Assembly: GCA_011773465.1 (NCBI GenBank) | Contig: WVXO01000022.1 | Coordinates: forward strand, 3,366 to 67,365 | DNA length: 64,000 nt | Direction of reading: 5' to 3' | DNA from: Candidatus Aminicenantes bacterium | Lineage (GTDB): Bacteria; Acidobacteriota; Aminicenantia; Aminicenantales; Aminicenantaceae | In this document: piece by piece, positions 14,949 to 33,369 of the stretch | How positions within the stretch are numbered: position 1 is the stretch's first letter | Layout: every line of letters begins with the position of its first letter | The notes under the pieces: generated by a model | Told to the model about the DNA's origin: nothing | The model's input: only the letters and a program-made list of their open reading frames with translations | The model's database searches: none | Made by a program: the position numbers and the translations under genes

Positions 14949-15782
14949 CTACTTTTTTTTATTTTCTGCTTCCTCAAGCCTGGCCTTAGCTTTTTTTGCT
15001 AATTTGCTTTGAGGAAAGTCAGTAATCAGTTTAGTGAAATAGGGTATACTCTGTTCGACCAATGTCGCTTTGTAATAAGAATCACCCAAATAGTAATAAA
15101 CTCTGTCCATTTTTGAATAATTAGGGAAGTTGGTTAGAATCTCTGTTAGCCTGCCTATGGCTGCGTTATAAGCTTTAACTCTGAAATAATGTACTCCTAT
15201 ATGGAGAGTGTGTTCAGCCAGCCTTTCTTCGCAGTCTAATATTTTTTCCTGGGCAGATTTTGCTTCTTCACTCAATGGATAATTAGTAACGACTTTTTTA
15301 AATTCTTCTAGGGCCTGTCTTGTTTTTGTCTGATCCCGGCCAGGCTTCAGAGCTTTTCTGTAGAAAGTCATGCCTATTTGATATTGAGCAAGGGGCGCAG
15401 AAGGACTGTAAGGAAAGAGGGATATAAACTCCCTGTATTCAGATGCAGCTAGTATCATACTTCCTTCATCTCTCTTTCGATAATATGAATCAGCGATAGC
15501 CAATTTTGCCTGTTGAGCATAAAAGCTTTTAGGAAAGGAATCAATGACCTGCCTTAAGTATAGACGAGCTTTTTCGGGATCTTTCTTAATATATTTCTCT
15601 CCAAGCTTAAACAGGGCTTCATCTGAAGAAGCAACTTCTGGTGAAATTTCTGTTGTTTTTTTTCCACAGCCAAAATTAATTATAAAACAGAGGAAAGAAA
15701 CGGTAAGAGCGAGGCTGAGTTTTTTTATCGTATTATTCTGTTTCTTCTTTAAGAAGAATATAGTTTTTTTGTCCATAGCCAT
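14949..15782 (-). CDS. bamD: Outer membrane protein assembly factor BamD-like TPR lipoprotein
   Basis: It has a lipobox (INFGC) and TPR-like repeats with a YfiO/BamD-type sequence (FKLGEKYIKKDPEKARLYLRQVIDSFPKSFYAQQAKLAIADSYY...). The start is uncertain (15782 or 15776) and overlaps the 3' end of the upstream gene. Confidence 0.75.
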   Translation of the reverse strand: MAMDKKTIFFLKKKQNNTIKKLSLALTVSFLCFIINFGCGKKTTEISPEVASSDEALFKLGEKYIKKDPEKARLYLRQVIDSFPKSFYAQQAKLAIADSYYRKRDEGSMILAASEYREFISLFPYSPSAPLAQYQIGMTFYRKALKPGRDQTKTRQALEEFKKVVTNYPLSEEAKSAQEKILDCEERLAEHTLHIGVHYFRVKAYNAAIGRLTEILTNFPNYSKMDRVYYYLGDSYYKATLVEQSIPYFTKLITDFPQSKLAKKAKARLEEAENKKK

Positions 15783-19053: not shown

Positions 19054-21030
19054 TTATTTTCTCTCCCCAAAAATAGCCTGCTCCACTAACTCAGCAATGT
19101 CCCAGATCTTTAATTTATCCTCCATATCTTTATTCTTTATTGCATCATCGAACATGGTAACACAGAAAGGGCAGGCGGTGGCAATCCACTCTGGATCTAC
19201 GGTCAGGGTATCCTCCAGGCGCTGGATGTTGACACGCTTTCCGATATTCTCTTCCATCCACATCCAGCCTCCTCCTCCTCCGCAGCACAGAGAGTCGATT
19301 CTAGAACGCTTCATCTCTCTGATATCAAGAGAAGGAATAGAATTAAGTATTTGCCTTGGCGGGTTGTAAATACCGCTGTATCGTCCGAGGTAGCAGGGAT
19401 CGTGGTATGTAGTCTTTTTAGCCAGGGCATGATCAAGCTTTAGGCGTTTGTTTCGGATGTTTTCCTTGAGAAACTCGGCATGGTGGACTACTTCACAGCT
19501 AAAGCCGAGTTGGGGGTACTCATTTTTGAGAGTGTTGTAACAGTGAGGACAAGTGGTCAGAATCCTTTTTATATTATAGCGGCCAAAGGTTTCTATATTG
19601 GTCTGGGCAAGGATCTGGTACAGATATTCATTGCCCACTCGTCGGGCAGGGTCTCCACAGCATCCTTCTTCCACGCCCAAGACAGCGAATTTGACTCCAA
19701 GATGATTAAGGATTTTTACAAAAGCCTCGGTTACTTTCTTATTGCGGTCATCGAAAGAGCGGATGCAACCGACAAAAAATAGGAAGTCAATATCTTCTCC
19801 GCTTATCTCTGCCATTAAAGGAGCTTGCAGCTCTCTAATCCAGTCTCCCCGGGTATCGCGCCCCATCCCCCAGGGATTTGAGTTTGTCTCCAGGCCCTTG
19901 AAAACCTGTGTTAGTTCCTGGGGGAACTTACTTTCCATCAACACTTGATAGCGCCTCATGTCCACCATTTTGTCCACATGTTCGATGAAGACAGGACAGT
20001 GCTCCATACAAGAACGGCAGGTTGTACAGGTCCAAAGCTCATCTTCTTCGATAACACTCCCGATGAGAGGAGGAAGCTCTTCCGGGTCAGCCCCTTTGGC
20101 CTTAGCCTTGATGAGCTGTGGAGCCCTTTGGTGTAAATGATCTCTCAAATCATCTATGACTTTCTTCGGGGAAAGGGGTTTTTCGGTTAAGTAAGCTGGA
20201 CAGTGATCCTGACACCGGCCGCACCGCATGCAGGCATCCAGATCCATAAGATGTTTCCAGCTAAATTCCTCAATTTTGGAAACCCCAAAGCTCTCTGCCT
20301 TCTCATCCTCCAGGTCCAGATGAGAGAGAATACCCTTAGGCTCAAGAGACCGATAAATCATATTCAACGGAGAACTAATTAAATGGAAAAGCTTGGAGAA
20401 GGGGATATAGACGATTGTTCCCAGGACGAGAAAAAAGTGAATCCGGAAGAAAAGCATGGCCAGAAAGCCTTTGGTCGCAGTATCAAGACCTGTCATGTTT
20501 AAAAAGAAAGCTAATGCTTTCCCCGCGGGTGCCAATGCCTGAGTGTCCCTTCCAATCACAGTCAACCTCAGACCTTCGAGGATTATTCCGGTTACAAGGA
20601 TAGACAGGATGAGGAGAAGCCCGGCAAAATCTTCAGCCCTGTTGTCAAGTCTTGAGGGGCGAGTTATGTAACGACGATAGATGGCCAGGATTAAGGCCAC
20701 GATCGCTGCCAGGGCGATTATATCAAGGACAAGAGATATAATCTTGGAAATCGAGACTGGTAAGGTGAACACAAACTGCGTTATTAAAATAACTATAAAC
20801 GGAACCATGAAGCCGATGAAGACAAGAAGGTGTATGAAGCCTGGATATATGTCTTGTAAAATCCTCCGATGAGCGATTCCATCCTTTAAAAGGGATTTTA
20901 TCCTCAACCACATTCTGTCCGATCGATTGTCGTCTCTGCCAACGCGCCACAACCGGAAGCGTTTATTCATGCCCCACGAAAAGATTATCAGCACTAAGAG
21001 GATAAAAAATATATCGAGTGCTTTAATCAT
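19054..21030 (-). CDS. Fusion of a NarI/DsrM-like membrane domain with an HdrD/DsrK-like Fe-S (CCG-domain) protein
   Basis: The N-terminal ~250 aa has 5-6 TM helices with conserved His residues. Then come CMRCGRCQDHCP and CTTCRSCMEHCP (2x[4Fe-4S]) and two CCG-type regions (...EEGCCGDP... and ...DSLCCGGGGG). The start is set at MIKALDIFF (ATG at 21030), 1 nt after the upstream stop. The TTG-initiated extension to 21105 overlaps the cytochrome gene. Confidence 0.85.
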   Translation of the reverse strand: MIKALDIFFILLVLIIFSWGMNKRFRLWRVGRDDNRSDRMWLRIKSLLKDGIAHRRILQDIYPGFIHLLVFIGFMVPFIVILITQFVFTLPVSISKIISLVLDIIALAAIVALILAIYRRYITRPSRLDNRAEDFAGLLLILSILVTGIILEGLRLTVIGRDTQALAPAGKALAFFLNMTGLDTATKGFLAMLFFRIHFFLVLGTIVYIPFSKLFHLISSPLNMIYRSLEPKGILSHLDLEDEKAESFGVSKIEEFSWKHLMDLDACMRCGRCQDHCPAYLTEKPLSPKKVIDDLRDHLHQRAPQLIKAKAKGADPEELPPLIGSVIEEDELWTCTTCRSCMEHCPVFIEHVDKMVDMRRYQVLMESKFPQELTQVFKGLETNSNPWGMGRDTRGDWIRELQAPLMAEISGEDIDFLFFVGCIRSFDDRNKKVTEAFVKILNHLGVKFAVLGVEEGCCGDPARRVGNEYLYQILAQTNIETFGRYNIKRILTTCPHCYNTLKNEYPQLGFSCEVVHHAEFLKENIRNKRLKLDHALAKKTTYHDPCYLGRYSGIYNPPRQILNSIPSLDIREMKRSRIDSLCCGGGGGWMWMEENIGKRVNIQRLEDTLTVDPEWIATACPFCVTMFDDAIKNKDMEDKLKIWDIAELVEQAIFGERK

Positions 21031-21031
21031 T

Positions 21032-21622
21032 TTACCAGGACTTACCAGGTGCGAGCATGACATCATGGCAATTAAGGCATTTATGGCTCTTGGGCGGTCC
21101 TTCAAATTCCCTAAGGTGACACTCGAGGCATTGGGTTACCGAGGGGCGATTTGTACCGCCTTCCATATATTCGTGCCCGGCTTGCCGGTGACAATCCACA
21201 CAATCCAGCCCTTCTCCATAGTGAATTCGGTGATTGAATTTTATGACCTTCTTTTTGACCTTATACCCTAGATTGAGAACATCCTCATGGCACTCCAGAC
21301 ACCTCTGCGAAGTTAGTTCGTCGTCAGCAAGATATTCGGGTGGGACGAATTGATCCCGGGCATGTTTGATAGCATTCCAGTCTTTTGGAGTGAGCTCAAC
21401 CCCTCGAGAGTGACATTCGTAACACCTTGTTTGGTCCGCTGGATGGCCCTTGGATTCTCTCCATAGCTCTGAAATCTCGGGATGGCACTGCCTGCAGACA
21501 AGCTCGTTTGTTGCTGAGTAGCGAACAAGATAGGATGCAACGCCCCCTCCACCGATTATGATGACGATGAGGATAAGGCTTGCTATTATTCGGAATTGCT
21601 TCTTATATCTCTGCGAAGACAT
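21032..21622 (-). CDS. Membrane-anchored hexahaem cytochrome c (NapC/NrfH-like anchor)
   Basis: An N-terminal TM helix (IIASLILIVIIIGGGGVASYL) is followed by six CxxCH motifs: CRQCH, CYECH, CLECH, CVDCH, CLECH, CLNCH. Confidence 0.85.
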   Translation of the reverse strand: MSSQRYKKQFRIIASLILIVIIIGGGGVASYLVRYSATNELVCRQCHPEISELWRESKGHPADQTRCYECHSRGVELTPKDWNAIKHARDQFVPPEYLADDELTSQRCLECHEDVLNLGYKVKKKVIKFNHRIHYGEGLDCVDCHRQAGHEYMEGGTNRPSVTQCLECHLREFEGPPKSHKCLNCHDVMLAPGKSW

Positions 21623-21623
21623 T

Positions 21624-22916
21624 TTATTTCACATCAATGCTTAACATGTATATCTCAGGAGTTTCCTTGCCCTGAGGAGGGCCGACGAGCAGAGCTCTGT
21701 TCCCCTTGAGGCTTATGATCTTTGGACTCCAGAAGGCTGGAATGCTTGGAAAGTCCATAGGCGATAAACCTTTGGCATAACCAGGCGTGCTCTCATCAAA
21801 GGCCATAATCTCCAGGCCGGTGTTAAGGTTAAGAATCATTCCTTTATAAATATGCTTAAAAAGAATGTATTGACCATTTCCTGACATATCGAAAAACTCA
21901 ACTCTAGGTGCAAGCCTGGACTTTATATACTTTAGCTCTTTTCCCTCACCATTCACGGTATATGTCCCTATACCTTGTTTTTTTATTCCGTTATAGAAGA
22001 AAACAATTTTCTCTCCATCGTGACTTATGTCGGTCAGACTGAACCAGCGGTCGTGGAAGTCGGTTATTTTCTTCTTTTCTTCTCCATCCCAGTTCACAAC
22101 GTAAAGGTCATAATCAGTATTATCTGCAGAAGACTGTGCTCCGAACACTATTTTTTGGCCGTTTCCACTCAGGGCAAACGCCCATCCTCCACCGATGAGC
22201 GGATTACGAGGAAATGAAGGCCATTTCCATTCATTCCCATCGAAATCAGGCGCAAGGATAGTTCTCTGTTTTTGGGTCGAAGCATCCAAGAGGATTATTC
22301 CGCCTGGGTTGCCGTACCTTCTTGGTCCCAAATGTCCTTTGAGCACACAGGCAATACGCTTCCCATCACTGCTGACCGCATAATTAGATAATCGTTCCCA
22401 ATCGCCATCGGTAAATTCGAGTGACTTTAAGTTTTTTCCTTCCAGGGCTTTGATAGGGAAGGGAATGATCCGGAAATTGGTGCCATCAGTGTTGACCACA
22501 GCCAAGAAATGGTCAAGGATATTCGACGGCGCGCCCAAACTCATAGAAAATACAGCTACTCGTCCGTTTCCACTCAAGACAGGGGGTTTTGAGCCAACAA
22601 GAAGGGGTATATCCTCGAATGGAGCTGGAGCCTTTTTTGTTCCGTCGCGGAAGAGTTCTCTTTCTTTTTTATCTCCAATGTTCATTATCCTTACTGCCTT
22701 TATCGCCTCTTCTTCGTCCTTGATCTCGATCGTATAGAGCATCCATCGGCCGTCATCGCTTAAGCAAGGAAAGTGCGCAACATTATTGCCTGAGTGAGTT
22801 AGCCTTGTTATTTCACCTGGGTTGTTTGCGTCCTTGGCATTTAAGAGCGATGCGGCAATCCAAAAGAAAGAAATAATGGCGGCGATTTGAATATATTTCT
22901 TAATCATTTCTTTCAA
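21624..22916 (-). CDS. Periplasmic beta-propeller protein (TolB/PD40-like repeats)
   Basis: It has a signal peptide (IAAIISFFWIAASLLNA) and repeated S.DG..I.F-type blades (LSDDGRWMLYT, VSSDGKRIACV, LSGNGQKIVFG, ISHDGEKIVFF, MSGNGQYILFK). Confidence 0.65.
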   Translation of the reverse strand: MKEMIKKYIQIAAIISFFWIAASLLNAKDANNPGEITRLTHSGNNVAHFPCLSDDGRWMLYTIEIKDEEEAIKAVRIMNIGDKKERELFRDGTKKAPAPFEDIPLLVGSKPPVLSGNGRVAVFSMSLGAPSNILDHFLAVVNTDGTNFRIIPFPIKALEGKNLKSLEFTDGDWERLSNYAVSSDGKRIACVLKGHLGPRRYGNPGGIILLDASTQKQRTILAPDFDGNEWKWPSFPRNPLIGGGWAFALSGNGQKIVFGAQSSADNTDYDLYVVNWDGEEKKKITDFHDRWFSLTDISHDGEKIVFFYNGIKKQGIGTYTVNGEGKELKYIKSRLAPRVEFFDMSGNGQYILFKHIYKGMILNLNTGLEIMAFDESTPGYAKGLSPMDFPSIPAFWSPKIISLKGNRALLVGPPQGKETPEIYMLSIDVK

Positions 22917-22932
22917 GCCTCCGTTTTTCGAT

Positions 22933-23014
22933 TGGGGTAAGGCCTTATCACACCGAAATTTATGTAATCAAAGGGAGGAAAACATCTCTTCCCAATGGCA
23001 AGGCCTGACCCCGA
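22933..23014. repeat. Family-D 82-bp MITE-like element (inverted relative to 10144-10225)
   Basis: TGGGGTAAGGCCTTATCA...AATGGCAAGGCCTGACCCCGA. Its reverse complement aligns end-to-end with the 10144-10225 copy, with conserved ~20-bp ends and a divergent core. It fills most of the 120-bp gap between the Mo-subunit and beta-propeller genes. Confidence 0.6.
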
Positions 23015-23036
23015 GAGAGGTATATTTTATCAGGCA

Positions 23037-25349
23037 TCATATTCTTTCAATTCGAACCCTTGTATCCTTTAATCCAAGGCCTCCTCCGATGGGATCTGCT
23101 TGTCTTACGATTATCTCGTTTGGATTCACACCGTTTCCTTTTTTATCCCACCAGATGAGATTTGTATCCTGGTCGTTGCTCTTGAATCGCTTGCCCTTGG
23201 CCACCTTTCCGACTGCCGAATGGCCTAAACCTTCAGCCATAGCCACAGACCAGGGATGAATCCGGTGAGTTGTTAGTACGCGGGAGACTAAGGACCCCAC
23301 AGAAGAAGTGACTCGGACTCTTTCTCCATTCTTGATGCCTAACCTGCGGGCTACATCTTTGTTAATCCACAAGCGGTTTTCATGGAGTATCTCCCTCACC
23401 CATTTACTGTTTGCGGTTCCTTTGGCCCAGAGATTGGATTTGAAGGTGGTGAGAATAAACTCGTCCTTTTTCTTTTCTGGCGCGAATAGAGGTTCATAGT
23501 CTGGCAATGGGGAATAGCCATTCTGCTTCAACGCTTTAGAATAGATCTCCACTTTCTGGCGCGAGGCAGGGAGCTCTTTATCGCCGCTGTACCGGTATCC
23601 GCCCGAATTAGATGTTTTTTCGGTCCAAAAGCCCTGGGTCTTCAAATTTTTAAGACCGCCCTCCGTCTTTAGACCGGAAATTGAATAGACTAACCTTGTT
23701 ATATAATCTTGCGTATTTTTATAAGGAAGATTTCTCGCTACGCGCCCCTTTATTCTGCGCGCCAGCTCCAGACACACGTTCCCCACTTCTTCGGCCTCGC
23801 CCCTGGGCCTGAACATTGGTTCCAGAAGCTTCCCCACATCAAAGGTTGGAGACCTTAAGACCTTAGCAGTGCTTATCATGAATACAACTGGCTGCCTTAG
23901 ATTTAGGATTGGAACCTTATCCAGTGATGGAGCGGTGCTTAATCCCCATCCCTCAAGATATGTTGCCGCAGGAAGAGCCATGTCAGCCAGCAGAGCTGTT
24001 TCTGTTAGATGAGTATCCATCACTACCAGGAAGGGCACAGTTTTTTCGTCTTTTAGTAAACTTGCAGTTGATTCACAATCAGGCTCTACGTAAGCGGGAT
24101 TGGAGAGGTAAGCGAAATAAGTGTTAATTCGGGTATTGGTCTCTTTTAGTTCTTTTATTCCTTTTACATTAACATCTGAATTTAATCTGGGTCTTAAAAC
24201 AGCTGCGTTTGGCTCGAGGCTTGCGGGATATCGAGGATAGAAAAGGCCACCTTCCTTCTCAAGGTTTCCGACAAGCCAGTTAAGGAGGGCTACAGATCTT
24301 ACGTTCTGGGTTCCATTCTTGTGATCGCTTATCCCGCCTCCGATTAAAACCATTGAAGGCTTCTGTGTGGCAAACTCGACTGCAAGGTGTTCGATATCTG
24401 CTGCTCTTACACCACTCTCTTCGGCTGCTTTCTCGGGAGTGTATTGGGATAGGTGATTTTTTATCATTGTCAGCGAGGTGTTGGTCTTGCGGTCCATAAA
24501 ATCTTCGTTGACCAGTCCCTTTTCTACGATCACCTTGGCCATAGCCAGGGCGACGATGCCGTCGGTTCCTGCTTTGATTGGGTACCAGGCGTCGCTCTTG
24601 GCCGCGGTCTCGGACATCCTGACGTCAAAGGTGATAAGCCTCGCTCCCTTCTCCACACGGGCATGGATGAGCCGGCGGGCAATTCCTACGAACTGGTCGT
24701 GGTTAGCATAAGGATTAGCACCGAAGTTTAGGATGAATCGACTTCTTCCAACATCCTCAACAAGAGATGGAAATCCTGTCATTGAGGTTAAGGCTGCAGT
24801 GCGGTTGAGATTCTTCAAGCCCGGCCTGTCGATCGTACGAGTTGCTCCAATAGCAGAGATGAATCTATCTAGTAAAGGATCATCATGGCCTTTATCAATC
24901 ACAAATTCGTTTATCCTGCCTTCTCTTATCATCTTCTTTAAACGCGCAGCCAGGGTGGAATACACTTCGTCCCAGGTAATTCTAGTCCACTGGCCCTCGC
25001 CTCTTGGTCCTTTTCTCATCAGCGGATAAAGCAATCTTTCGGGATCGTTGACCAGGTTTAGCCCAGCAATACCCTTGGCGCATATCCCGCCTTGGTTATT
25101 GGGGTGGTCCGGGTTCCCGAGGAGCTGGACGAGCCGCTCCCCGTTAAGATAGGCATTGATGCCACAGCCTGCAGGACACTGTTCGCACGTCGTGGGGACG
25201 ACTTGGAGGGGTTTGAGTGAGGTTCGGGATACGCCGTCTTTTTTTATGGAACCTGGCCTTTGTATCGGGCTGAGGCCAGCAGCCGTTCCTGCAAACCAGG
25301 CGATACCGGTCTTCATGAAACTGCGTCTTGAGATTCTTTTTTTTGACAT
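23037..25349 (-). CDS. Tat-exported molybdopterin oxidoreductase, large subunit (Psr/Phs/Ttr-like size class)
   Basis: It has the twin-arginine leader SRRSFMKTGIAWFAGTAAG, the N-terminal FS0 motif C55-x2-C58-x3-C62-x27-C90 (TTCEQCPAGCG...GGICAKG), and MGD-binding-like segments (ITFDVRMSETAAKSDAWYPIKAGTDGIVALAMA). Length is 770 aa. Confidence 0.88.
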   Translation of the reverse strand: MSKKRISRRSFMKTGIAWFAGTAAGLSPIQRPGSIKKDGVSRTSLKPLQVVPTTCEQCPAGCGINAYLNGERLVQLLGNPDHPNNQGGICAKGIAGLNLVNDPERLLYPLMRKGPRGEGQWTRITWDEVYSTLAARLKKMIREGRINEFVIDKGHDDPLLDRFISAIGATRTIDRPGLKNLNRTAALTSMTGFPSLVEDVGRSRFILNFGANPYANHDQFVGIARRLIHARVEKGARLITFDVRMSETAAKSDAWYPIKAGTDGIVALAMAKVIVEKGLVNEDFMDRKTNTSLTMIKNHLSQYTPEKAAEESGVRAADIEHLAVEFATQKPSMVLIGGGISDHKNGTQNVRSVALLNWLVGNLEKEGGLFYPRYPASLEPNAAVLRPRLNSDVNVKGIKELKETNTRINTYFAYLSNPAYVEPDCESTASLLKDEKTVPFLVVMDTHLTETALLADMALPAATYLEGWGLSTAPSLDKVPILNLRQPVVFMISTAKVLRSPTFDVGKLLEPMFRPRGEAEEVGNVCLELARRIKGRVARNLPYKNTQDYITRLVYSISGLKTEGGLKNLKTQGFWTEKTSNSGGYRYSGDKELPASRQKVEIYSKALKQNGYSPLPDYEPLFAPEKKKDEFILTTFKSNLWAKGTANSKWVREILHENRLWINKDVARRLGIKNGERVRVTSSVGSLVSRVLTTHRIHPWSVAMAEGLGHSAVGKVAKGKRFKSNDQDTNLIWWDKKGNGVNPNEIIVRQADPIGGGLGLKDTRVRIERI

Positions 25350-25363
25350 AAGTTAAAATACCT

Positions 25364-26260
25364 TTATAGCAGCGGGATGAATTCCCCGGCTAAAACGACT
25401 ACATATCTCATGAAAAATATTCCAATGACCACCAGGATCGAGGCCACTATTGTCGTAGCCAATGTCCTTAGCCTTGGTACTATCAGGAGAAAAAAGGGCA
25501 CGATCTTGCCCAGCAGATTCTCGACGACAAGGAAGAGGAAGCTGAATTTTCCTTGCAGGAGCAGGTGGGCTGCTGCTTGAGCATCTGAGTGGGAGATAGA
25601 AAGGACTATAAGGTCGCAGGCCACAAGAAAGAGGTCGAAAACAATCATCCAGGCAAGGAGTTTGCCAAGGCCAAATACAAGCTCGCGGTCGATTTTCCTT
25701 TCTTTGGAAAAGAAACGTTCTTTGATTATGAAGACAAGGATCATGAGGGCAATCCCCGAGATAACAGCGGAGACAAGGAAGAGTATGGGCATCAGGGCAG
25801 TATTCCAGAGGGCCCTTGCCTTGCCGAAAGCAAGAATGAATCCCGTATATCCATGAACCGATACAGCTAGGGGGATACCGATAAGCCCAAAGATCCTGGT
25901 TAGTTTCATGTTTTCCTTAAACATGAAATAGCCGTATATAATACAATTTATCGGATAGAGTATTAGCAGGAATGAGCCCCAGGTGATAGGGGAGGCCATG
26001 TTGAGATAAATAAAAAGATGCCAAGCACGGTAGGGCGTCCCCACATGGAAGAGAAGGAATAGGGGGGCTATGATGAGGACTATGGTGGCCACAACAACCC
26101 CAACCTTACCGAGTGGTTTGTACTGGCTCAGGCCAAAGCCATAGGCCAATGTGGATAGGATAAATGATCCTGCGCTTACACCAGTTAGATAAATATACAT
26201 AGCGATGTTAAAGCCGAATGCATCCTGGTGAAAGATGTTGTAAATAACCTGAGTATCCAC
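25364..26260 (-). CDS. NrfD/PsrC-family integral membrane quinone-interacting subunit
   Basis: A 298-aa protein with ~8 predicted TM helices. Its position next to the 4Fe-4S and Mo subunits is typical of NrfD/PsrC/DsrP proteins. Confidence 0.8.
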   Translation of the reverse strand: MDTQVIYNIFHQDAFGFNIAMYIYLTGVSAGSFILSTLAYGFGLSQYKPLGKVGVVVATIVLIIAPLFLLFHVGTPYRAWHLFIYLNMASPITWGSFLLILYPINCIIYGYFMFKENMKLTRIFGLIGIPLAVSVHGYTGFILAFGKARALWNTALMPILFLVSAVISGIALMILVFIIKERFFSKERKIDRELVFGLGKLLAWMIVFDLFLVACDLIVLSISHSDAQAAAHLLLQGKFSFLFLVVENLLGKIVPFFLLIVPRLRTLATTIVASILVVIGIFFMRYVVVLAGEFIPLL

Positions 26261-26264
26261 GACA

Positions 26265-26858
26265 CTATTCCTCTTTTATCTTTTTTGCCTCTACAGCGGC
26301 TTGCTCAAGACCGATGTAAAAAGTTTGGGGATCGGTTCCCATATCAGGTTTTATAACCTGAACCGCATTCGTGGCTACGGCTTTGGCAATATCGCTTCGA
26401 GGATCATTAAGATCGCCGAATATCATTGCTCCTGTGGGGCAGACCAGCACACATGCTGGTTTTAGACCGGCGTCTACTCGATGATGACACCAATAGCACT
26501 TCTCTGCTATTTTTTTTCTGGGATTGATGTATCTTACCCCATAAGGGCAGGAAGCCATGCAGTAGCGGCAGCCGATGCATCTGTGCGGGTCGATGTAAAC
26601 GATTCCATCAGGGCGTTTGATGCCAGCATTAACTGGACAGACAGTGACACAGATAGGCTTGTCGCAGTTGTTGCAGACTACAGGAAGAAAGAATTCCTTG
26701 GAATCAGGATATTGACCTTTTTCTACTTTTTTTACCCAGCTCCTCCAGACACCCAGCGGCACATCGTTTTCACTCTTGCAAGCCACCACGCAGGCGTTGC
26801 AGCCGATGCACTTCCTCAAGTCGACCAGCATGGCGTATCGTTTTTTCTTATTGCTCAT
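26265..26858 (-). CDS. Four-cluster 4Fe-4S ferredoxin-type subunit (PsrB/NrfC/DsrO-like)
   Basis: It has four Cys groups: CIGCNACVVAC, CNNCDKPICVTVCP, CIGCRYCMASCP and CYWCHHRV...CVLVCP. There is no signal peptide of its own. Confidence 0.9.
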   Translation of the reverse strand: MSNKKKRYAMLVDLRKCIGCNACVVACKSENDVPLGVWRSWVKKVEKGQYPDSKEFFLPVVCNNCDKPICVTVCPVNAGIKRPDGIVYIDPHRCIGCRYCMASCPYGVRYINPRKKIAEKCYWCHHRVDAGLKPACVLVCPTGAMIFGDLNDPRSDIAKAVATNAVQVIKPDMGTDPQTFYIGLEQAAVEAKKIKEE

Positions 26859-26870
26859 GGTTTTGTTGCG

Positions 26871-28040
26871 CTATTCTTTGTCGTTATTGTCTTTGTCGCT
26901 CTTAATATGATCGCCCTCCTCCTGGTCAGGCTTATCTTGGTCCACTTTATCCAAATCGCGATTATCTTGATTGCCCTTATCTTGCTCATCTTTATCCTTT
27001 TCACTCATACCCCTATCGCTCTTATCAATATCGATCTTACCCTGATCACTAATATCCTGATCTTCCTTTTCTATCTTGCTCTTATCCTGATCCCCAACAT
27101 CTTTTTCACGCCTATTTTTCTCACCCTGATCTTGGCCGCCCATCTCTTTTTCATCCTTGGCTCGTTCTGTTTCTTTTTTTTCCTTCTCCGGGGCTTCTTC
27201 TTTTATTTTCATGCTTTCATACCATGTCTTCATCCCCCCAGCTATCGTCTTTCGCGATTTATACCCGAAGAAGACACCCATTCCAACGACAAGGAGGATA
27301 GCTAGTCCACCGCCCATATAATTGAGCTTGACCCATCTTATTGATTCGAGGTGTGTCGGTCCCATGAGTGAGCGAGCTTTTGAACGAACATCATGGCAGC
27401 GGGAGCAAAAATCCTTAAAAGGACGTTTGGCTCCGTGAGCAGAATCACCATAATGGCAATTAAGACACATCTTCATATCAAACCTCTCCGAGAGGTCGCC
27501 CTTGCGGTGTCCGGATATCTTTCCCAAAGAGGAGCCTTTGAAGATCCCTTTGACCATAACCTCAGCATGGCATTCGTTACAGGTCTCTCCCACATTATCC
27601 TCGTGCACGGACGATGATGGATCATCATGGGGAAGGATGTGGTGTTTGGTATGACAGTGGTAGCAGAGGGGAAGCTCTTTATTAGGGGAAGGAACTGCAA
27701 AGGTTAAGTGAATATTTTTCTGATACTCTTCTGCTTCTTCAGGATGACAGCGGGCACAATCCACATCGATGAAGCCTTCCCTGAAATGGATATATGGATT
27801 GGCATTTGTATGGCAATCCACGCAAACCAAGCTGCCTTTGTGGTGGATATCCTGGGACCATTTCTCTGGATCAACGAAGAGGGAGCGGATCTTCCCATCG
27901 CTTGTGATCTGGGAGATATCGGGCTTACCGTGACAGAAAAGACAATCTTGATCGGTGTATTCAGAAATTTGAGAAAAAGAACGGCTAAAAGAGAAGATTA
28001 AGAAAAAGGAAAAGGTCAACAGACATTTTTTTAAATGCAT
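26871..28040 (-). CDS. Heptahaem cytochrome c with C-terminal TM helix and long acidic D/K/E/Q-rich tail
   Basis: It has a signal peptide and seven CxxCH motifs (CLFCH, CVDCH, CARCH, CYHCH, CNECH, CLNCH, CSRCH). A TM segment GGGLAILLVVGMGVFFGY is followed by a ~129-aa low-complexity tail. ATG at 28040 is preferred over TTG at 28049. Confidence 0.85.
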   Translation of the reverse strand: MHLKKCLLTFSFFLIFSFSRSFSQISEYTDQDCLFCHGKPDISQITSDGKIRSLFVDPEKWSQDIHHKGSLVCVDCHTNANPYIHFREGFIDVDCARCHPEEAEEYQKNIHLTFAVPSPNKELPLCYHCHTKHHILPHDDPSSSVHEDNVGETCNECHAEVMVKGIFKGSSLGKISGHRKGDLSERFDMKMCLNCHYGDSAHGAKRPFKDFCSRCHDVRSKARSLMGPTHLESIRWVKLNYMGGGLAILLVVGMGVFFGYKSRKTIAGGMKTWYESMKIKEEAPEKEKKETERAKDEKEMGGQDQGEKNRREKDVGDQDKSKIEKEDQDISDQGKIDIDKSDRGMSEKDKDEQDKGNQDNRDLDKVDQDKPDQEEGDHIKSDKDNNDKE

Positions 28041-28154
28041 CCCTCTCAAGCGCCTTAGTTAAGTTATCCTGTGATTGTTATTAGATGCTGCGTGCTCTTT
28101 GTGGATGAAACTATCCTCTTCATTTTAATTCTATGGGCTCTAATCATACAATTC

Positions 28155-28979
28155 TTAAAAGGGAATAGCAACGCCCCAGGTCAGTTTATAAAATTTTTGT
28201 TTGCTTCCCGACGGGCTTGTCTTTATATCCTTCCAGATTCCTCCGCCAGCGGATAATTCCAACCAGTCTAAAAGCCTTATTCGTACGATCAGGTCTGCTA
28301 TATGAGTTTGCCCGCGAGAAAAAAGCTTTTCTGTCTGATAAAAAATCTGAAAATGGAGACCCACTCGATCTTCAAACCACCTTCCAACCCTAAGGCCATA
28401 TTCGTAGCGGGGAGAATCGCCTGAGAGGTCGAGATGTCCTCTCTGTTTTGTATTCTCAAGGAGATACCAGAGAAAAGGTTCGATATAGAAATCTCCTTTT
28501 TTAGACGGTAGCCCGAGGCCTATATAATTGCGGTTGACATAGTAGCGGCTTTGATTTATGGCGCTTCTGTGATCTAAGTCATGATTACTGTCGTGACCAA
28601 TAATCAAGACAAGATTTCTTGATAAGAATTGCCTGAGGGAGAAGTGCCAATCAAATTTGGTGCGGCTATGATTGTCGTCATGAGTCACGAGCTGGGCAAG
28701 GAAGACTGTGTTTTCTGTAATAAAAATGATGTTTCGAAATCCATAATTCCATCTATCTTCTTTTCCACTGAGGTCATTATAACTGGGAAATGTGCTTGGA
28801 AGTTGGAGATGACCGAAAAACTCTCCGTGGAGGGTGACTTTCTTTTCTCGGCTGACCGGCCTTTTCTCAAGATAGGGACGGTAGATAAAAAGTACGTAAG
28901 AATAAACCGAATCAGGGATGATAAAACATGAAAACAATAAAAAGAAAAAAACGATGCATATGCGTTTTTTAATATTCAC
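28155..28979 (-). CDS. Hypothetical outer-membrane beta-barrel-like protein with His-rich segments
   Basis: It has a signal-like N-terminus (ICIVFFFLLFSCFII), alternating strand pattern, HDDNH and GHDSNHDLDH segments and the C-terminal ...WGVAIPF. It lies ~105 bp upstream of the cytochrome gene on the same strand. Confidence 0.4.
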   Translation of the reverse strand: MNIKKRICIVFFFLLFSCFIIPDSVYSYVLFIYRPYLEKRPVSREKKVTLHGEFFGHLQLPSTFPSYNDLSGKEDRWNYGFRNIIFITENTVFLAQLVTHDDNHSRTKFDWHFSLRQFLSRNLVLIIGHDSNHDLDHRSAINQSRYYVNRNYIGLGLPSKKGDFYIEPFLWYLLENTKQRGHLDLSGDSPRYEYGLRVGRWFEDRVGLHFQIFYQTEKLFSRGQTHIADLIVRIRLLDWLELSAGGGIWKDIKTSPSGSKQKFYKLTWGVAIPF

Positions 28980-29195: not shown

Positions 29196-30599
29196 ATGGA
29201 CGAGAAATGGGATGTGATAATCATAGGAGGAGGTCCTGGTGGATACGTTGCTGCTATCAGGGCAGCTCAGCTTAAAAAAAGAGCTGCTCTTATCGAGAAG
29301 CATAAGATAGGCGGGACATGCACGAATTATGGATGTATTCCCGCCAAATATCTTTTGCATCAGACAAAGATTTATAAAGAGCTAAAAGAAAACAAGAATA
29401 TTGAGGGTCCTTTAGAAAAGATAAAATGCAACTGGAAGAAAGTCCAGGAGGAGAAGAACAAGGTTGTAGAGAGACTGGTGAAGGGGATAGAGTTTCTGTT
29501 AAGGAAAAATGGAATAGAAATCATAAGGGCAGAAGGTCTTATCAGGAGCGAAAAACAGATTGCTGTTAAGACAGAAGGAGGAGAGAAGATTCTAGAGTCG
29601 GATAAGATTATCCTTGCCACTGGCAGCAGGCCGGCCGCGCTTCCTTTCCTTGAACCAAACGGGAAGGAAGTTGTTACATCTCGTGAAACGCTCGAGTTTA
29701 ATGATATCCCCAAAAGAATGTTGGTTGTCGGAGCTGGCGCAGTCGGACTTGAATTGGGCTCGATTTACCAGAGGCTTGGTTCGGACGTTTCAGTCCTTGA
29801 AATTATGCCCACTATACTCCCTGGCAGCGATGGGGAAATGGCTGCCCGATTGGAAAGGATCCTCAAACAGCAGGGACTTAAAATCCATACTCAAATGAGA
29901 ATAGAAGATAGCAGCATCAAAGAAGGTAGGGTAAGCCTTAAAGGCACAAGCCTTAAAACTCAATCTGCTTTTGATTTTGAGGCAGAAAAAGTTCTCTTGG
30001 CAATTGGAAGGAAGCCAAACACTGAAGATCTGACAGGAAAAGACTTTGAACTTATCTTAGATAAGCATGGATTTGTCAAAGTAAACTCTCAGCTGGAAAC
30101 AAACATCCCAGGTATCTATGCCATAGGAGATATGATCGGTGGATATCTTCTTGCCCATAAAGCATCGCACGAAGGAATCATTGCTGCCGAGAATGTGTCT
30201 GGATTAAAAGCGGAGATGAGCTATAAAGCTCTTCCTCAGGCAGTCTACACATATCCAGAATTCTCCTCTGTTGGTCTGACTGAAGAAGCAGCTAAGGAGA
30301 GAGGAATAAAGATTCAGGTGGGCTTGTTCTCTCTTCAGGCAAACGGCCGGGCTCTTACACTTGGAAAGCAGGAAGGTGTGGTCAAGATAATTGCAGATGA
30401 GAAAGATGAAATCATCGGGGCTCATATCATTGCTCCAAACTCGAGTGAATTTATTTCTGAGATAAGTTTAGCTATGAAAAGAGGCCTGAAAATTCAGGAC
30501 GTCTCTTCATCAATCCATATCCATCCGACATTATCGGAAGCTGTGATGGAAGCAGCCATGAAAGCCAAAAACCAGGCTATTCACATATTAAATATTTAA
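29196..30599 (+). CDS. lpdA: Dihydrolipoyl dehydrogenase
   Basis: It has the FAD motif IIIGGGPGGYVAA, the redox disulfide GGTCTNYGCIPAK, the NAD motif VVGAGAVGLE and the C-terminal HIHPTLSE. Confidence 0.9.
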   Translation: MDEKWDVIIIGGGPGGYVAAIRAAQLKKRAALIEKHKIGGTCTNYGCIPAKYLLHQTKIYKELKENKNIEGPLEKIKCNWKKVQEEKNKVVERLVKGIEFLLRKNGIEIIRAEGLIRSEKQIAVKTEGGEKILESDKIILATGSRPAALPFLEPNGKEVVTSRETLEFNDIPKRMLVVGAGAVGLELGSIYQRLGSDVSVLEIMPTILPGSDGEMAARLERILKQQGLKIHTQMRIEDSSIKEGRVSLKGTSLKTQSAFDFEAEKVLLAIGRKPNTEDLTGKDFELILDKHGFVKVNSQLETNIPGIYAIGDMIGGYLLAHKASHEGIIAAENVSGLKAEMSYKALPQAVYTYPEFSSVGLTEEAAKERGIKIQVGLFSLQANGRALTLGKQEGVVKIIADEKDEIIGAHIIAPNSSEFISEISLAMKRGLKIQDVSSSIHIHPTLSEAVMEAAMKAKNQAIHILNI

Positions 30600-30668: not shown

Positions 30669-31013
30669 ATGACCGAACTTTTCCTCGTTTTCCTCGTTTT
30701 TGGCCTCTTGGGATTTGTCTTGCTCTTTATGAACAAGCTTGTGGGACCCAGGAGGACAAATCCCACAAAGGAAACTCCGTTTGAGTGTGGAAGCCCTTAC
30801 CTCCAAGAGGAGATCAATCCTGTTCCGATTAAGTTTTCTCTTGTCGCTTTTATATTTCTTCTTTTTGATATCGAAGTCGTATTTTTCTTCCCCTGGGCTC
30901 TTATCTTCAAAGAAATGGGATTAGCTGCGTTGATTGTCATGTTTGCGTACATGTTTGTTATCATCATGGGATTTATTTACGCCTGGAAAAAAGGCGCTTT
31001 TGTCTGGGATTAG
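30669..31013 (+). CDS. nuoA: NADH-quinone oxidoreductase subunit A
   Basis: A 114-aa protein with three TM segments and the FECG motif, in first position of the nuo cluster. Confidence 0.85.
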   Translation: MTELFLVFLVFGLLGFVLLFMNKLVGPRRTNPTKETPFECGSPYLQEEINPVPIKFSLVAFIFLLFDIEVVFFFPWALIFKEMGLAALIVMFAYMFVIIMGFIYAWKKGAFVWD

Positions 31014-31104
31014 GAGAACAGAAAAGATCAAAAATATAGCTAGTAACTATCACTTGTAGCTGGTGATGAGGACCAGTAACAAGAGATCAAGAAGAAGGTA
31101 GCAC

Positions 31105-31578
31105 ATGATAGGAAGTTTTTTTACGACGAGATTCAATTACATACTGGGATGGGCTCGGAAGTATTCTCTTTTTCATTATCCTTATATTACAGCTTGTTGT
31201 GGTATGGAATATATGTCTACCGCTGCCTCCCATTTTGATTGGGACCGCTTTGGGACTGGCTGGACAAGGTTTTCACCACGTCAGTCTGACATGCTTGTTG
31301 TCTGCGGAACAATCTCTCATAAATTAGCACCGGTACTCCGGACAGTCTATGACCAGATGACCGAGCCCAAGTGGGTTATGGCTTTTGGCACTTGTACTGT
31401 GAGTGGCGGTATTTACGACAATTATGCCGTTGTTCAAGGAATTGACCGCATTATCCCGGTGGATATCTACATTCCGGGCTGCCCACCTCGCCCGGAGACA
31501 GTTTTGGATGGCTTAATAAAATTACAGGAAAAAATTCAAAAACAAGAACAAGAATGGAGATGGAAAAAAAGAAAGTAA
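31105..31578 (+). CDS. nuoB: NADH-quinone oxidoreductase subunit B
   Basis: It has the N2 cluster ligands CCGMEY...GTC...GCPP(RPE). Confidence 0.93.
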   Translation: MIGSFFTTRFNYILGWARKYSLFHYPYITACCGMEYMSTAASHFDWDRFGTGWTRFSPRQSDMLVVCGTISHKLAPVLRTVYDQMTEPKWVMAFGTCTVSGGIYDNYAVVQGIDRIIPVDIYIPGCPPRPETVLDGLIKLQEKIQKQEQEWRWKKRK

Positions 31579-32039
31579 TAGAAGAACTAAGACAGAAATT
31601 TTCAGAAAAGATAAAAGAGGTAACTGTTCAGTTTGGAGACGAAATTCTCCTCATCGAAAGGGATTCCCTTCTTGATATTGTCCAATTCTTGAAAGATAAG
31701 CCTTATTCCTACAGCATGCTTCTCGACCTCACCTGTGTCGACTATAAAGGTCAAGAACCGCGCTTCGAGATGGTTTATCATCTGTTTTCTATTCCCAACA
31801 TACAGCGCTTAAGAATAAAGGTCCGACTCTCAGAGAAAGACCTCCAGATTGACTCATTGACTTCGGTCTGGAAAAACGCCAATTGGCTGGAGAGAGAAGT
31901 CTACGACATGTTTGGAGTTAATTTCAAAGATCATCCTGATCTAAGACGAATTTTCATGTATGACGGATTCGAGGGCCATCCTCTGCGTAAGGACTTTCCT
32001 CTGCGTAAACGCCAGCCAAGGATTCCGTTGAGAAAATAA
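31554..32039 (+). CDS. nuoC: NADH-quinone oxidoreductase subunit C
   Basis: It has the motif NWLEREVYDMFGVNFKDHPDLRRI. The start is uncertain (31554 or 31560) and overlaps the nuoB end. Confidence 0.88.
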   Translation: MEMEKKKVIEELRQKFSEKIKEVTVQFGDEILLIERDSLLDIVQFLKDKPYSYSMLLDLTCVDYKGQEPRFEMVYHLFSIPNIQRLRIKVRLSEKDLQIDSLTSVWKNANWLEREVYDMFGVNFKDHPDLRRIFMYDGFEGHPLRKDFPLRKRQPRIPLRK

Positions 32040-32040
32040 A

Positions 32041-33369
32041 ATGCCGACAAGAATTCAGAAAGAAGCTTCCGAAGAAAGCCTTCTTCTAAACATGGGACCT
32101 TCTCATCCAGCCATGCACGGGACAATCCGGATAATGCTCGAGCTTGACGGGGAGCGGATTCTCAATTCGGAAGTCGAAGTGGGATATTTACACAGAGGTT
32201 TCGAGAAAATCTGCGAACACAGGACCTATTTCAACCTGCTTCCCTATACGGACAGGATGAATTATGTCTCTCCTCTAATCAATAACCTTGGTTATGTGAT
32301 GACAGTAGAGAAAATGTTAGGCATCGAGGTGCCTGAGAGGGCGCAGTATATTCGAGTTATAATGAGTGAGCTTTCGCGCATTTCTGACCACCTTACGTGT
32401 CTGGCAGCCATGGCCATGGAGTGCGGGGCTTTCACCGTTTTCCTCTACAACGTGAAAGCACGTGAATTTATCTGGGATGTCATCGAAGAAACCACGGGCG
32501 CGCGCATGACAACTTCCTATATCCGCATAGGCGGAGTTAGAGCTGATCTTCATCCTGGTTATAAAGCGGTTCTTAAGAAAGCGATTGTGGAGACAAGAAA
32601 AGTTTTAAAGGATATTCATGGTCTCCTTGATAAGAACAAGATTTATCTTAATAGAACAAGAGATATTGCGGTTGTTTCTCCAGAGACAGCCATCTCCTAT
32701 GGATGGACTGGCCCCTGTCTCCGCTCCACAGGCGTTTATTATGATGTCCGCAAAGCTTCCCCTTATGCGGTTTATGACCAATTGGATTTTGAGGTTCCTT
32801 TGGGCGAGCGAGGGGATAACTTTGACAGATACATGGTTCGGATGAAAGAGATGGAACAGAGCCTAAGGATTATTGAGCAAGCCATGGAAAAAATGCCAAG
32901 TCCGTCTCCATCCAAGCTTATGGCTGAAGCTCTCGAGCCAGCCGAAGCAATCAAGGCCTCCAGAACAAAAAGGATTGAGAAAGAAATAAAGCTCTCTCCC
33001 AATTTAGAAGGTTCAGAAAGGCAGAAATACCTGGATATTCTTGGCACAGATAAAAAATATGTCGTCCCTCCCAAGGAGGATACATACACTTCGATCGAAG
33101 GGATCATTAATCATTTCAAGTTTTTCATGAGGGATCATGGTATAAGACCTCCCAAAGGGGAGGTTTATTTTTCTGTTGAAGGCGGAAACGGCGAGCTTGG
33201 CTTTTATATCGTATCAGATGGCACTGACAGGCCCTATCGCTTGCACCTGAGGGCGCCTTGTTTTCACATTGTTTCTGCCCTGGAAGAAATGATCAAGGGG
33301 CGCTACATAGCCGATGTCATTCCTACTTTTGGATCGACGAATATGATAGGAGGAGAGTTAGATAGATGA
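32041..33369 (+). CDS. nuoD: NADH-quinone oxidoreductase subunit D (with ~40-aa insertion)
   Basis: It has NMGPSHPAMHGTIR, YLHRGFEK and the C-terminal GELDR. An extra segment lies at residues ~288-335 relative to the remembered E. coli/Thermus layout. Confidence 0.92.
   Translation: MPTRIQKEASEESLLLNMGPSHPAMHGTIRIMLELDGERILNSEVEVGYLHRGFEKICEHRTYFNLLPYTDRMNYVSPLINNLGYVMTVEKMLGIEVPERAQYIRVIMSELSRISDHLTCLAAMAMECGAFTVFLYNVKAREFIWDVIEETTGARMTTSYIRIGGVRADLHPGYKAVLKKAIVETRKVLKDIHGLLDKNKIYLNRTRDIAVVSPETAISYGWTGPCLRSTGVYYDVRKASPYAVYDQLDFEVPLGERGDNFDRYMVRMKEMEQSLRIIEQAMEKMPSPSPSKLMAEALEPAEAIKASRTKRIEKEIKLSPNLEGSERQKYLDILGTDKKYVVPPKEDTYTSIEGIINHFKFFMRDHGIRPPKGEVYFSVEGGNGELGFYIVSDGTDRPYRLHLRAPCFHIVSALEEMIKGRYIADVIPTFGSTNMIGGELDR

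Follow-up and report, generated by a model that had tools for sequence, protein, structure and literature searches.

A conserved seven-gene operon of Candidatus Aminicenantes that may join an EMO/EtfD-type membrane protein to a Psr-like periplasmic redox module

The minus strand of a 64,000-nucleotide stretch of DNA (hereafter the window; GenBank assembly GCA_011773465.1, contig WVXO01000022.1, positions 3,366 to 67,365) carries seven co-directional open reading frames (ORFs) between positions 19054 and 28049. They encode two multihaem cytochromes c, an iron-sulfur (FeS) protein, an NrfD-type membrane protein, a large subunit of the molybdenum/tungsten (Mo/W) bis-pyranopterin guanine dinucleotide (bisPGD) family, a beta-propeller and a fusion of NarI-like and HdrD-like domains. 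The source of the DNA is a metagenome-assembled genome (MAG) of Candidatus Aminicenantes; the large-subunit sequence is 100% identical to a Candidatus Aminicenantes MAG protein, and its metagenomic relatives number in the hundreds. An earlier, model-made reading of this DNA (the original prediction) had described a composite respiratory locus of two gene blocks, and its genes, coordinates, motifs and intergenic gaps were verified by ORF listing and translation, Pfam searches and motif counts. In order from the heptahaem gene, the gaps measure 12, 4, 14, 120, 1 and 1 nucleotides (nt). Domains were assigned with Pfam and with NCBIfam equivalog models at curated cutoffs; both agree with the gene identities and confirm the list of parts drawn up before. 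The features of the locus are these (aa, amino acids; TM, transmembrane):

26871-28049, minus strand: heptahaem cytochrome c, 392 aa, with seven CxxCH motifs, a hydrophobic 19-mer at residues 242-260 and a Sec signal
26265-26858, minus strand: four-cluster [4Fe-4S] subunit of the PsrB/DsrO/TtrB type, 197 aa, with four Cys clusters and a Fer4_11 domain
25364-26260, minus strand: NrfD/PsrC-type membrane subunit, 298 aa (PF03916)
23037-25349, minus strand: Tat-exported Mo/W-bisPGD-family (PsrA/PhsA-like) subunit, 770 aa, with the motif SRRSFMK
22917-23036, no strand assigned: spacer with an inserted palindromic repeat, its arms at 22934-22949 and 22997-23012
21624-22916, minus strand: periplasmic beta-propeller, 430 aa, with a signal peptide
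21032-21622, minus strand: N-anchored hexahaem cytochrome c, ActA/NapC-like, 196 aa, with six CxxCH motifs and a TM segment at residues 6-24
19054-21030, minus strand: EMO/EtfD-type NarI/HdrD fusion, 658 aa, with a Nitrate_red_gam domain, two CxxCxxCxxxCP motifs and two CCG motifs
28155-28979, minus strand: candidate upstream member, 274 aa, with a signal peptide and the C-terminus ...AIPF; its membership in the unit is uncertain

The predicted topologies place the Mo-like subunit, the FeS subunit, the cytochromes and the propeller in the periplasm and the CCG domain of the fusion in the cytoplasm. Homologous loci were collected from one genome per species, which gave 78 loci, and all seven proteins were compared with every one of them. 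In all 26 Aminicenantes-type loci that have sufficient flanking DNA (the set to which all 26-locus counts refer), the seven genes occur in the same order, while the identity of the large subunit falls from 84% to 48%; a closed 4.4-Mb genome (L001) and locus L002 are examples with called genes. Recurrence of the arrangement in 26 independent species-level genomes is far beyond chance, and our confidence in the composite operon is good. The expectation that both gene blocks would be found together in relatives thus held for every Aminicenantes relative. Some of these records (L003, L005, L009, others, and P0022) are labelled 'uncultured Eubacteriales', 'Proteobacteria bacterium' or 'Desulfatiglandales', with operons 57-87% identical to Aminicenantes proteins; such labels probably reflect placeholder or mis-binned taxonomy and not genuine occurrence outside the group.

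The 120-bp spacer had been taken as a repeat-bearing border between two blocks. Its repeat is real: inverted arms, GGGGTCAGGCCTT at 22934-22949 and AAGGCCTTACCCC at 22997-23012, enclose about 50 nt, and the element, about 80 nt long, folds into a hairpin of -37.9 kcal/mol (z -2.6). A further copy lies at 10146-10224, the pattern giving five matches against 0.25 expected by chance. Both copies (10146-10224 and 22934-23012) keep the terminal inverted repeats GGGRTYAGGYCTT ... AAGGCCTRACCCC around a variable interior, and a weaker half-site is seen at 3450-3465. The element looks like a REP- or MITE-like intergenic repeat (repetitive extragenic palindrome or miniature inverted-repeat transposable element) of the source genome. 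The border did not survive. In two relatives with 83-86% identity (L003 and L004), the junction between the Mo-subunit and propeller genes is about 20 nt long and lacks the repeat, and a terminator scan of the minus strand in 22917-23036 gave no terminator-like site, so that the spacer is ruled out as an operon boundary. Because the repeat is absent from this junction in close relatives, the two-block split is a strain-specific artefact. The seven genes are best seen as one predicted operon, since the remaining gaps are 1-14 nt, the sole long gap is a strain-specific repeat insertion and the order is kept in all 26 loci.

The split also fails as a boundary between functional modules. Relatives with 35-42% identity occur in Thermodesulfobacteriota/Syntrophaceae, Bacillota, Chloroflexota, Armatimonadota, KSB1, Zhuqueibacterota and Tectomicrobia, where the FeS, NrfD and large-subunit genes are usually followed directly by a gene for an N-anchored multihaem cytochrome of 6-20 haems; homologues of the anchored cytochrome, with these 6-20 haems, follow the Mo gene in loci of Thermodesulfobacteriota, Bacillota and Armatimonadetes. 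This four-gene core (FeS-NrfD-Mo-cytochrome) is found in at least five phyla besides Aminicenantes. Since the hexahaem cytochrome accompanies FeS-NrfD-Mo in other phyla, it belongs with the Psr-like Mo module and not, as first drawn, with the block of the fusion. Neither the propeller nor the NarI/HdrD fusion was present at the core loci outside Aminicenantes among the 35-42% relatives compared; these two and the heptahaem cytochrome are Aminicenantes-specific additions among the compared loci. The gene order had been set apart from the A-B-C order, but FeS-NrfD-Mo is the order of Salmonella ttrBCA and as such nothing unusual. Within the operon, the FeS and NrfD subunits are best conserved, with mean identities across the 26 loci of 79% and 78%, and the Mo subunit, at 61%, is tied for lowest. 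NrfD is 67-69% identical to its Thermodesulfobacteriota homologues, whose Mo subunits reach only about 41%.

A comparable pairing is seen in Anaerolineae, where a large subunit of 27-30% identity leads an A-B-C-ordered Mo-FeS-NrfD cluster; after it come a fusion of a NarI domain with a 10-haem cytochrome c and a separate HdrD-like protein with two CCG motifs. Taken with the Aminicenantes operon, this means that Mo/FeS/NrfD genes have been joined to cytochrome c, NarI and CCG parts at least twice, in differing architectures, and we regard the two-fold joining as the best evidence that the modules may be functionally associated.

Other neighbourhoods of the Mo family were recorded in the same scan. 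In five Thermodesulfobacteriota MAGs (L037, L039, L044, L069 and L074, at about 5500-8100), ATP synthase genes, one atpB-like (238 aa) and one atpE-like (107 aa), directly precede an NrfD-Mo-cytochrome cluster; the FeS-subunit gene between atpE and NrfD is present in L037 and L074 and missing in L039 and apparently in L044 and L069. In L063 and L070, from Zhuqueibacterota and 'Cytophagia'-labelled MAGs, four genes come after the Mo module at 11200-15400: one for a NapC-like cytochrome with seven haems, followed by genes for a small Fer4 protein, a Fer2+Fer4 protein and an FAD_binding_2 flavoprotein of 560 aa. The three genes after the cytochrome are reminiscent of a succinate dehydrogenase/fumarate reductase or AprA-type module, so that another cytoplasmic redox module appears to be attached to the Mo family there. 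In two Syntrophaceae loci, a fusion of a 9-haem cytochrome c with a cytochrome b561 (Ni_hydr_CYTB) membrane domain is encoded a few kb upstream of the Mo cluster (L048:1095-3086 and L040:1670-3514), and one or two 16-haem cytochromes are encoded downstream of it.

The last gene of the operon, previously read as a DsrMK/Hmc-type module, gave the clearest reassignment. Its start is placed at the internal ATG at 21030, with support from the relatives, which all begin with MIK. A sequence search of the PDB returned 9ojn_A at E 1.3e-125 and 423.6 bits over query residues 22-649, in aligned blocks 22-311 and 296-649 against residues 32-345 and 367-741 of the chain; the next matches were HdrB and HdrC at E of about 1e-5. 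The scores for DsrK (73.5, cutoff 400), DsrM (26, cutoff 300), HmcF (54.8, cutoff 750) and TmcB (70.5, cutoff 735) were weak in comparison. The structure 9OJN is that of Mycobacterium smegmatis EtfD (the Rv0338c orthologue), a wire that carries electrons from electron-transfer flavoprotein (ETF) to menaquinone through five TM helices (TMH), one haem b, two cubane clusters, one non-cubane cluster and one linear 3Fe-4S cluster (PMC13083937). A second such ETF:menaquinone oxidoreductase (EMO), from Syntrophus aciditrophicus (SaEMO), is described in a 2026 preprint: ETF docks onto the non-cubane clusters, the membrane domain contains a distal "twin haem" besides the proximal haem, and three His are conserved throughout EMO-type domains (10.64898/2026.08.18.745454).

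The Aminicenantes protein shares this architecture: a NarI-like domain of five TMH is combined with two cubane 4Fe-4S sites and two CCG (non-cubane cluster) domains. Both CCG domains are complete, and the first has the full Cys set C422, C457-C458, C494 and C497, as in Hdr. H67 and H216 align with His78 and His241 of EtfD and H198 is the conserved distal His, each at least 90% conserved in the family. A reading as a di-haem NarI/DsrM domain was rejected, since P77 stands where NarI has its second TM2 His and the histidines follow the EMO pattern. By homology, then, the fusion is of the EtfD/EMO type, and DsrMK, Hmc and Tmc are far more distant from it. With 423.6 bits to EtfD and weak Dsr, Hmc and Tmc scores, ETF is the likelier cytoplasmic partner, in place of the thiol/disulfide couple suggested at first.

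The 770-aa subunit has the Pfam domains Molybdop_Fe4S4, Molybdopterin and Molydop_binding and the Tat motif SRRSFMK, and its best PDB match is Thermus PsrA (2vpw_A, 202.5 bits by profile). It was expected to fall outside the characterised clades, and it does so: all NCBIfam equivalogs score below cutoff, PhsA best at 299.5 bits against 694, and the relatives tested are also under cutoff, with PhsA the top model every time. Five profile alignments (PsrA, where the ligand is Cys173, FdhF, F420-FDH, ArrA and acetylene hydratase) place K179 on the Cys/Sec ligand of Mo/W, and the alignment has no Cys, Sec, Ser or Asp ligand at the metal-ligand position of the window's subunit. In Aminicenantes, the residue in this column is K or, in some members, R or N, and the other phyla show S, I, M, N, L, H, T, F, G and K; the residue is Cys in the nearest Cys-bearing relatives (L060, L065, L071 and L073). 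Asn182, three residues after the ligand position, is kept across nearly the whole Cys-less group, the cysteines of the proximal cluster FS0 (C55, C58, C62 and C90) are invariant, and the segments that we take, from general knowledge of the family, to bind the two pterins are conserved as well as in Cys-bearing relatives. A neighbour-joining tree of 72 Mo subunits is too weak to separate one Cys loss from several.

In the dimethyl sulfoxide reductase (DMSOR) family, the ligand is Sec, Cys, Ser or Asp, or is missing together with a 3Fe-4S FS0 (AioA, IdrA), and the cofactor is wholly absent in ActB, Nqo3 and FhcB (PMC10100899). QrcB is likewise without redox cofactors (PMC13059093). A state in which a 4Fe-4S-type FS0 and the pterin motifs are kept and the ligand is lost, as the alignments indicate here, is not among the listed ligand states. 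Identification as PsrA/PhsA, TtrA, ArrA, QrcB or formate dehydrogenase (FDH) is ruled out by the sub-cutoff equivalogs and the missing ligand, and assignment to the cofactor-less QrcB/ActB type is not justified, FS0 and the pterin motifs being intact and ActB absent from the PDB matches. Of the periplasmic "Mo-dependent (or scaffold-type)" reaction proposed earlier, the first half can no longer be assumed in its standard form, given Lys179, and the scaffold option is live. The subunit may be either an unliganded or non-canonical Mo/W terminal catalyst, or a relay or scaffold heading to the cofactor-less state of QrcB and ActB.

Its partners are of more familiar kinds. The FeS subunit matches Fer4_11 (E 1.1e-26) and, among the NCBIfam models, TtrB (225.5 bits) and DsrO (201.9 against a cutoff of 200), and its top PDB match is Thermus PsrB (2vpw_B, 190.6 bits). 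Because it has no signal peptide of its own, it is presumably exported together with the Tat-signal subunit. The NrfD protein (PF03916, E 5.9e-46) shows eight TM helices by eye, of which seven reach the threshold of a hydrophobicity scan; it has no cofactors and is predicted to be of the quinone-interacting type, and ActC (6f0k_C) is its sole PDB match. The heptahaem protein (Pfam Cytochrome_C7 and c3_2) combines a periplasmic haem domain with one C-terminal TM helix and a cytoplasmic, low-complexity tail of 117 aa (22 K, 18 E and 24 D; window 26871-27221) that varies between relatives (tblastn coverage 0.7-0.9), and the PDB search gave no informative relative. For the hexahaem cytochrome, Pfam gave Cytochrom_NNT at 27.2 bits, and the top three PDB matches are all ActA (6lod_A, 4.5e-8; 8k9e_A, 4.9e-7; 6f0k_A, 3.2e-5), although the similarity is modest.

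The signal-peptide beta-propeller called earlier stands: AlphaFold2 with an alignment gave an all-beta model (pLDDT 85.7, pTM 0.85), and the single-sequence model (pLDDT 48) was unusable. Foldseek returned only generic seven-bladed folds (oligogalacturonate lyase, S9 peptidase N-domain, TolB) at a TM score of about 0.55, and no function is therefore derivable. Its precomputed Pfam assignment is PF26549 (Tricorn_N), and its family has 244 matches, with at least 56% identity in all 120 of those listed.

The 274-aa protein at 28155-28979 has a complete or nearly complete counterpart (55-66% identity) directly upstream of the heptahaem gene in 11 Aminicenantes loci, is missing in some, such as L002, and has no Pfam or NCBIfam match; from its sequence features, it may be an outer-membrane beta-barrel. 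The same upstream position in L001 and L002 is held by a 900-aa protein with a CarboxypepD_reg domain, a domain that often heads outer-membrane TonB-dependent-receptor-like proteins in Acidobacteriota. The system may thus include an outer-membrane component.

We propose, with a probability of roughly 0.45, that the products of this one operon form a membrane system for menaquinone-linked electron transport that is typical of Aminicenantes, with ETF-fed entry at the EMO-like protein and a periplasmic acceptor. Entry from ETF is suggested because the EtfD match is full-length at 423.6 bits, EtfD is an ETF-to-menaquinone wire and the Syntrophus EMO has the same three His. A quinone-linked exit module is suggested because the NrfD/FeS pair is best conserved, PsrB is nearest to the FeS subunit, the cytochrome is ActA-like and the core occurs in other phyla. 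That the two modules are coupled is suggested by the Anaerolineae pairing and by the electron path in DsrMKJOP, which runs from the NrfD-type DsrP through DsrO and DsrJ to DsrM (haem b) and DsrK (10.64898/2026.08.25.746951).

In such a system, a cytoplasmic carrier, by homology most likely ETF reduced in acyl-CoA or amino-acid oxidation, would deliver electrons to the Fe-S clusters of the EMO-like protein, where they would pass over the non-cubane and cubane clusters to the haem or haems b. From there, they could reduce menaquinone, to be re-oxidised at the periplasm-facing NrfD/FeS pair, or they could pass directly to the adjacent anchored c-type cytochrome, if a distal haem is present as in the Syntrophus EMO. 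The NrfD/FeS pair, the ActA-like hexahaem and heptahaem cytochromes and the Mo-like subunit would then lead to a periplasmic acceptor. Quinone reduction on the negative (N) side and quinol oxidation on the positive (P) side would form a proton-motive redox loop, and the flow could also run in reverse, as in the loop driven by the proton-motive force in syntrophs. The propeller would be an Aminicenantes-specific accessory, and we would guess that it docks a substrate or partner. Qrc together with DsrMK follows the same redox-loop logic in sulfate-reducing organisms (PMC6303296), and so does the electron path seen in DsrMKJOP (10.64898/2026.08.25.746951).

The complex I genes nuoA-I, 2.6 kb from the operon, make a quinone pool likely. 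All nine are Pfam-confirmed and run divergently on the plus strand at 30669-38222; nuoJ-N do not follow directly after nuoA-I in the window, and a dihydrolipoamide-dehydrogenase-like gene at 29196-30599 precedes the nuo genes.

Several observations weigh against this proposal, and our confidence in its assignment of donor, acceptor and direction of flow is low. Both CCG motifs have the complete form known from heterodisulfide reductase, and the distal site is reduced in the two EMOs that have been characterised; a thiol/disulfide substrate therefore has to be reckoned with. The b haems may number one, as in the mycobacterial protein (MsEMO), or three, as in SaEMO, a count not readable from sequence. 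No etfAB genes were found in L001 and L002, over about 10 kb around the cluster, or in the scanned parts of the window; mycobacterial etfD is not known to be adjacent to etfAB. Outside Aminicenantes, the core lives without an EMO-like gene, which makes the EMO link lineage-specific. The threonine aldolase flank is syntenic in 17 of the 26 Aminicenantes loci, and since this housekeeping flank is conserved too, part of the co-conservation could reflect general collinearity in the class.

A stronger form of the proposal is doubtful. It would make the operon an undescribed anaerobic respiratory complex in which the EMO wires ETF-level electrons directly into the periplasmic cytochromes and the Psr-like module, with the large subunit in a new DMSOR clade, spread over at least seven phyla, that keeps FS0 and the pterin pocket, has lost the amino-acid ligand and either has a new coordination type with a new substrate or is an intermediate on the way to QrcB/ActB.

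It is about as unlikely that the large subunit is a true terminal periplasmic Psr-type Mo/W enzyme, either free of an amino-acid ligand, as arsenite oxidase is, or bound by Asn182, to which the other parts merely supply electrons. Its invariant FS0 cysteines, the pterin motifs kept as well as in Cys-bearing relatives, the retained Tat signal and the +3 Asn kept across the Cys-less clade would all suit such an enzyme, and AioA and IdrA function without an amino-acid ligand (PMC10100899). NrfD proteins of the 8-TMH type partner genuine Mo enzymes, and the 10-TMH type goes with QrcB, ActB, DsrJ and HmcA (Duarte et al., PMC6303296). However, the ligand column is not conserved (K/R/N in Aminicenantes and ten different residues elsewhere), the Mo subunit shares the lowest conservation in the operon (61%, with FeS and NrfD at 78-79%), its conserved ActA-like partner is of the kind found in complexes with an inactive Mo-like subunit, and no substrate can be proposed. 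The low conservation and the ActA-like partner incline us slightly towards a relay or scaffold role, with the cytochromes as the electron exit; the intact pterin and FS0 motifs and the 8-TMH NrfD would favour a working cofactor.

We consider it improbable that the second gene block instead forms, largely as in the original prediction, a DsrMK/Hmc/Tmc-type module through which a cytoplasmic thiol/disulfide couple, DsrC-like or a low-molecular-weight heterodisulfide, would be linked to the periplasmic Mo module and to the quinone pool. The full five-Cys HdrB/HdrD set in both CCG motifs, unlike in the two characterised EMOs, points in that direction, as do the FeS subunit that barely reaches the DsrO cutoff, a list of parts equal to DsrMKJOP or Hmc plus a Mo subunit, and the Anaerolineae clusters with their Tmc-like cytochrome c/NarI fusion and HdrD-like protein. 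Yet DsrK, DsrM, HmcF, TmcB and DsrP score far under their cutoffs while EtfD is matched at full length, two non-cubane sites are present against the single one in DsrK, and no DsrC, DsrAB or TusA genes were seen near the locus in L001 and L002 (within 10 kb) or in the window.

Two independent systems, a Psr/ACIII-like quinol:cytochrome c module and a stand-alone ETF:menaquinone oxidoreductase that share only the quinone pool and are adjacent through class collinearity, would accord with EMO/EtfD acting as a single polypeptide in mycobacteria and Syntrophus, with the core lacking the EMO in other phyla and with the syntenic housekeeping flank, but have an equally small chance given the 1-nt gaps between the propeller and cytochrome genes and between the cytochrome and EMO-like genes, the position of a core-module cytochrome between two Aminicenantes-specific genes, the lack of any rearrangement in 26 genomes down to 48% identity and the independent origin of a comparable pairing in Anaerolineae, where the cytochrome c is fused to the NarI domain.

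Aminicenantes, a group of abundant and uncultured anaerobes, have usually been regarded as fermenters. A conserved quinone-linked operon near complex I genes suggests that they can respire some acceptor. If the EMO-like protein does couple ETF to this module, it would give the EMO/EtfD family a third physiological context, after the aerobic beta-oxidation of mycobacteria and the reverse electron transfer of syntrophs. A Mo-family subunit that has lost its ligand across phyla and is otherwise intact could also serve as a test case for the passage from DMSOR catalysts to Qrc/ACIII scaffolds, or for new metal coordination. The putative ligand-less clade across phyla and the EMO-type protein inside a cytochrome/Psr-like operon are, in our view, the two points of real interest. 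All of these conclusions are based on sequence and predicted structure.

Elsewhere in the window, two adjacent, very large plus-strand ORFs of 1091 and 1010 aa follow a 404-aa ORF (41777-48081); from their N-termini, they look like a resistance-nodulation-division (RND)-type efflux system.

Compared with known systems, the operon shares with PsrABC/PhsABC (Thermus thermophilus 2VPZ) a Tat-exported Mo-bisPGD-family subunit with FS0, a signal-less four-cluster FeS protein and an 8-TMH anchor, and PsrABC provides the best solved matches for the large and FeS subunits (202.5 and 190.6 bits). It differs in that Cys173, the Mo ligand of PsrA, is replaced by Lys, in the PhsA score of 299.5 against 694, in the B-C-A order and in the addition of two multihaem cytochromes, a propeller and an EMO-like protein. 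With alternative complex III (ACIII, ActABCDEF) and Qrc (QrcABCD), it has in common an anchored multihaem cytochrome c, a ligand-less Mo-family subunit, a four-cluster FeS protein and NrfD; the nearest solved relatives are ActA, from three organisms, for the anchored cytochrome and ActC for NrfD. Unlike in ACIII, the Mo-like and FeS genes are separate (770 and 197 aa), where ActB is a fusion, and there is a single 8-TMH NrfD in place of two 10-TMH NrfD-like proteins (ActC and ActF). The ORF and domain listing of the operon contains no ActD, ActE or ActF homologues, and ActB is not among the PDB matches of the large subunit. Unlike in Qrc, FS0 cysteines and pterin motifs are kept, whereas QrcB is without redox cofactors (PMC13059093), and NrfD has 8 TMH against 10 in the Qrc membrane subunit; the Qrc scores all lie below cutoff (QrcA 22.4 against 180, QrcB 196.8 against 440, QrcC 125.8 against 400 and QrcD 51.5 against 570).

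The DsrMKJOP, HmcABCDEF and TmcABCD complexes of sulfate reducers are built from similar parts: a periplasmic cytochrome c, an FeS protein with four clusters, an NrfD subunit, a cytochrome b of the NarI type and a CCG protein on the cytoplasmic side. The Aminicenantes operon differs from them in the added Mo-family subunit and propeller, in the fusion of the NarI and CCG parts and in its two non-cubane sites, against the single one in DsrK (10.64898/2026.08.25.746951). Among the Dsr equivalogs, only DsrO passes (201.9, cutoff 200) and DsrP reaches 78.5 (cutoff 350); HmcB (92.7, cutoff 420), HmcC (29.7, cutoff 550), HmcF (54.8, cutoff 750), TmcB (70.5, cutoff 735) and TmcC (21.3, cutoff 240) all fail.

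The closest likeness is that of the last gene to EMO/EtfD, as a single chain with a NarI-like 5-TMH domain, two cubane sites, two CCG domains, a full-length match and the His trio kept. The CCG pair is complete here, unlike in EtfD, which has C-T and a linear 3Fe-4S cluster, and in SaEMO, which lacks one Cys; as characterised EMOs number two, the altered distal non-cubane site may not be a defining trait. The 265-aa disordered tail of EtfD is missing, no etfAB is adjacent as it is to syntroph EMOs, and an operon with periplasmic cytochromes and a Psr-like module is a context not mentioned in PMC13083937 or 10.64898/2026.08.18.745454.

By these comparisons, membership failed for Psr/Phs, Qrc, ACIII, Dsr, Hmc and Tmc, while the last gene passes most tests for an EMO. 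The original prediction recognised no described complex with all of these parts, and the literature searched, including the NrfD-complex catalogue of Calisto and Pereira 2021, likewise held no description of the seven-part combination. Every part is of a known kind, and it is the combination itself for which no precedent was found. The operon works like a hybrid, in which a Psr/ACIII/Qrc-like periplasmic quinone module is joined to a cytoplasm-facing module related to EMO/EtfD and, more loosely, to DsrMK/Hmc.

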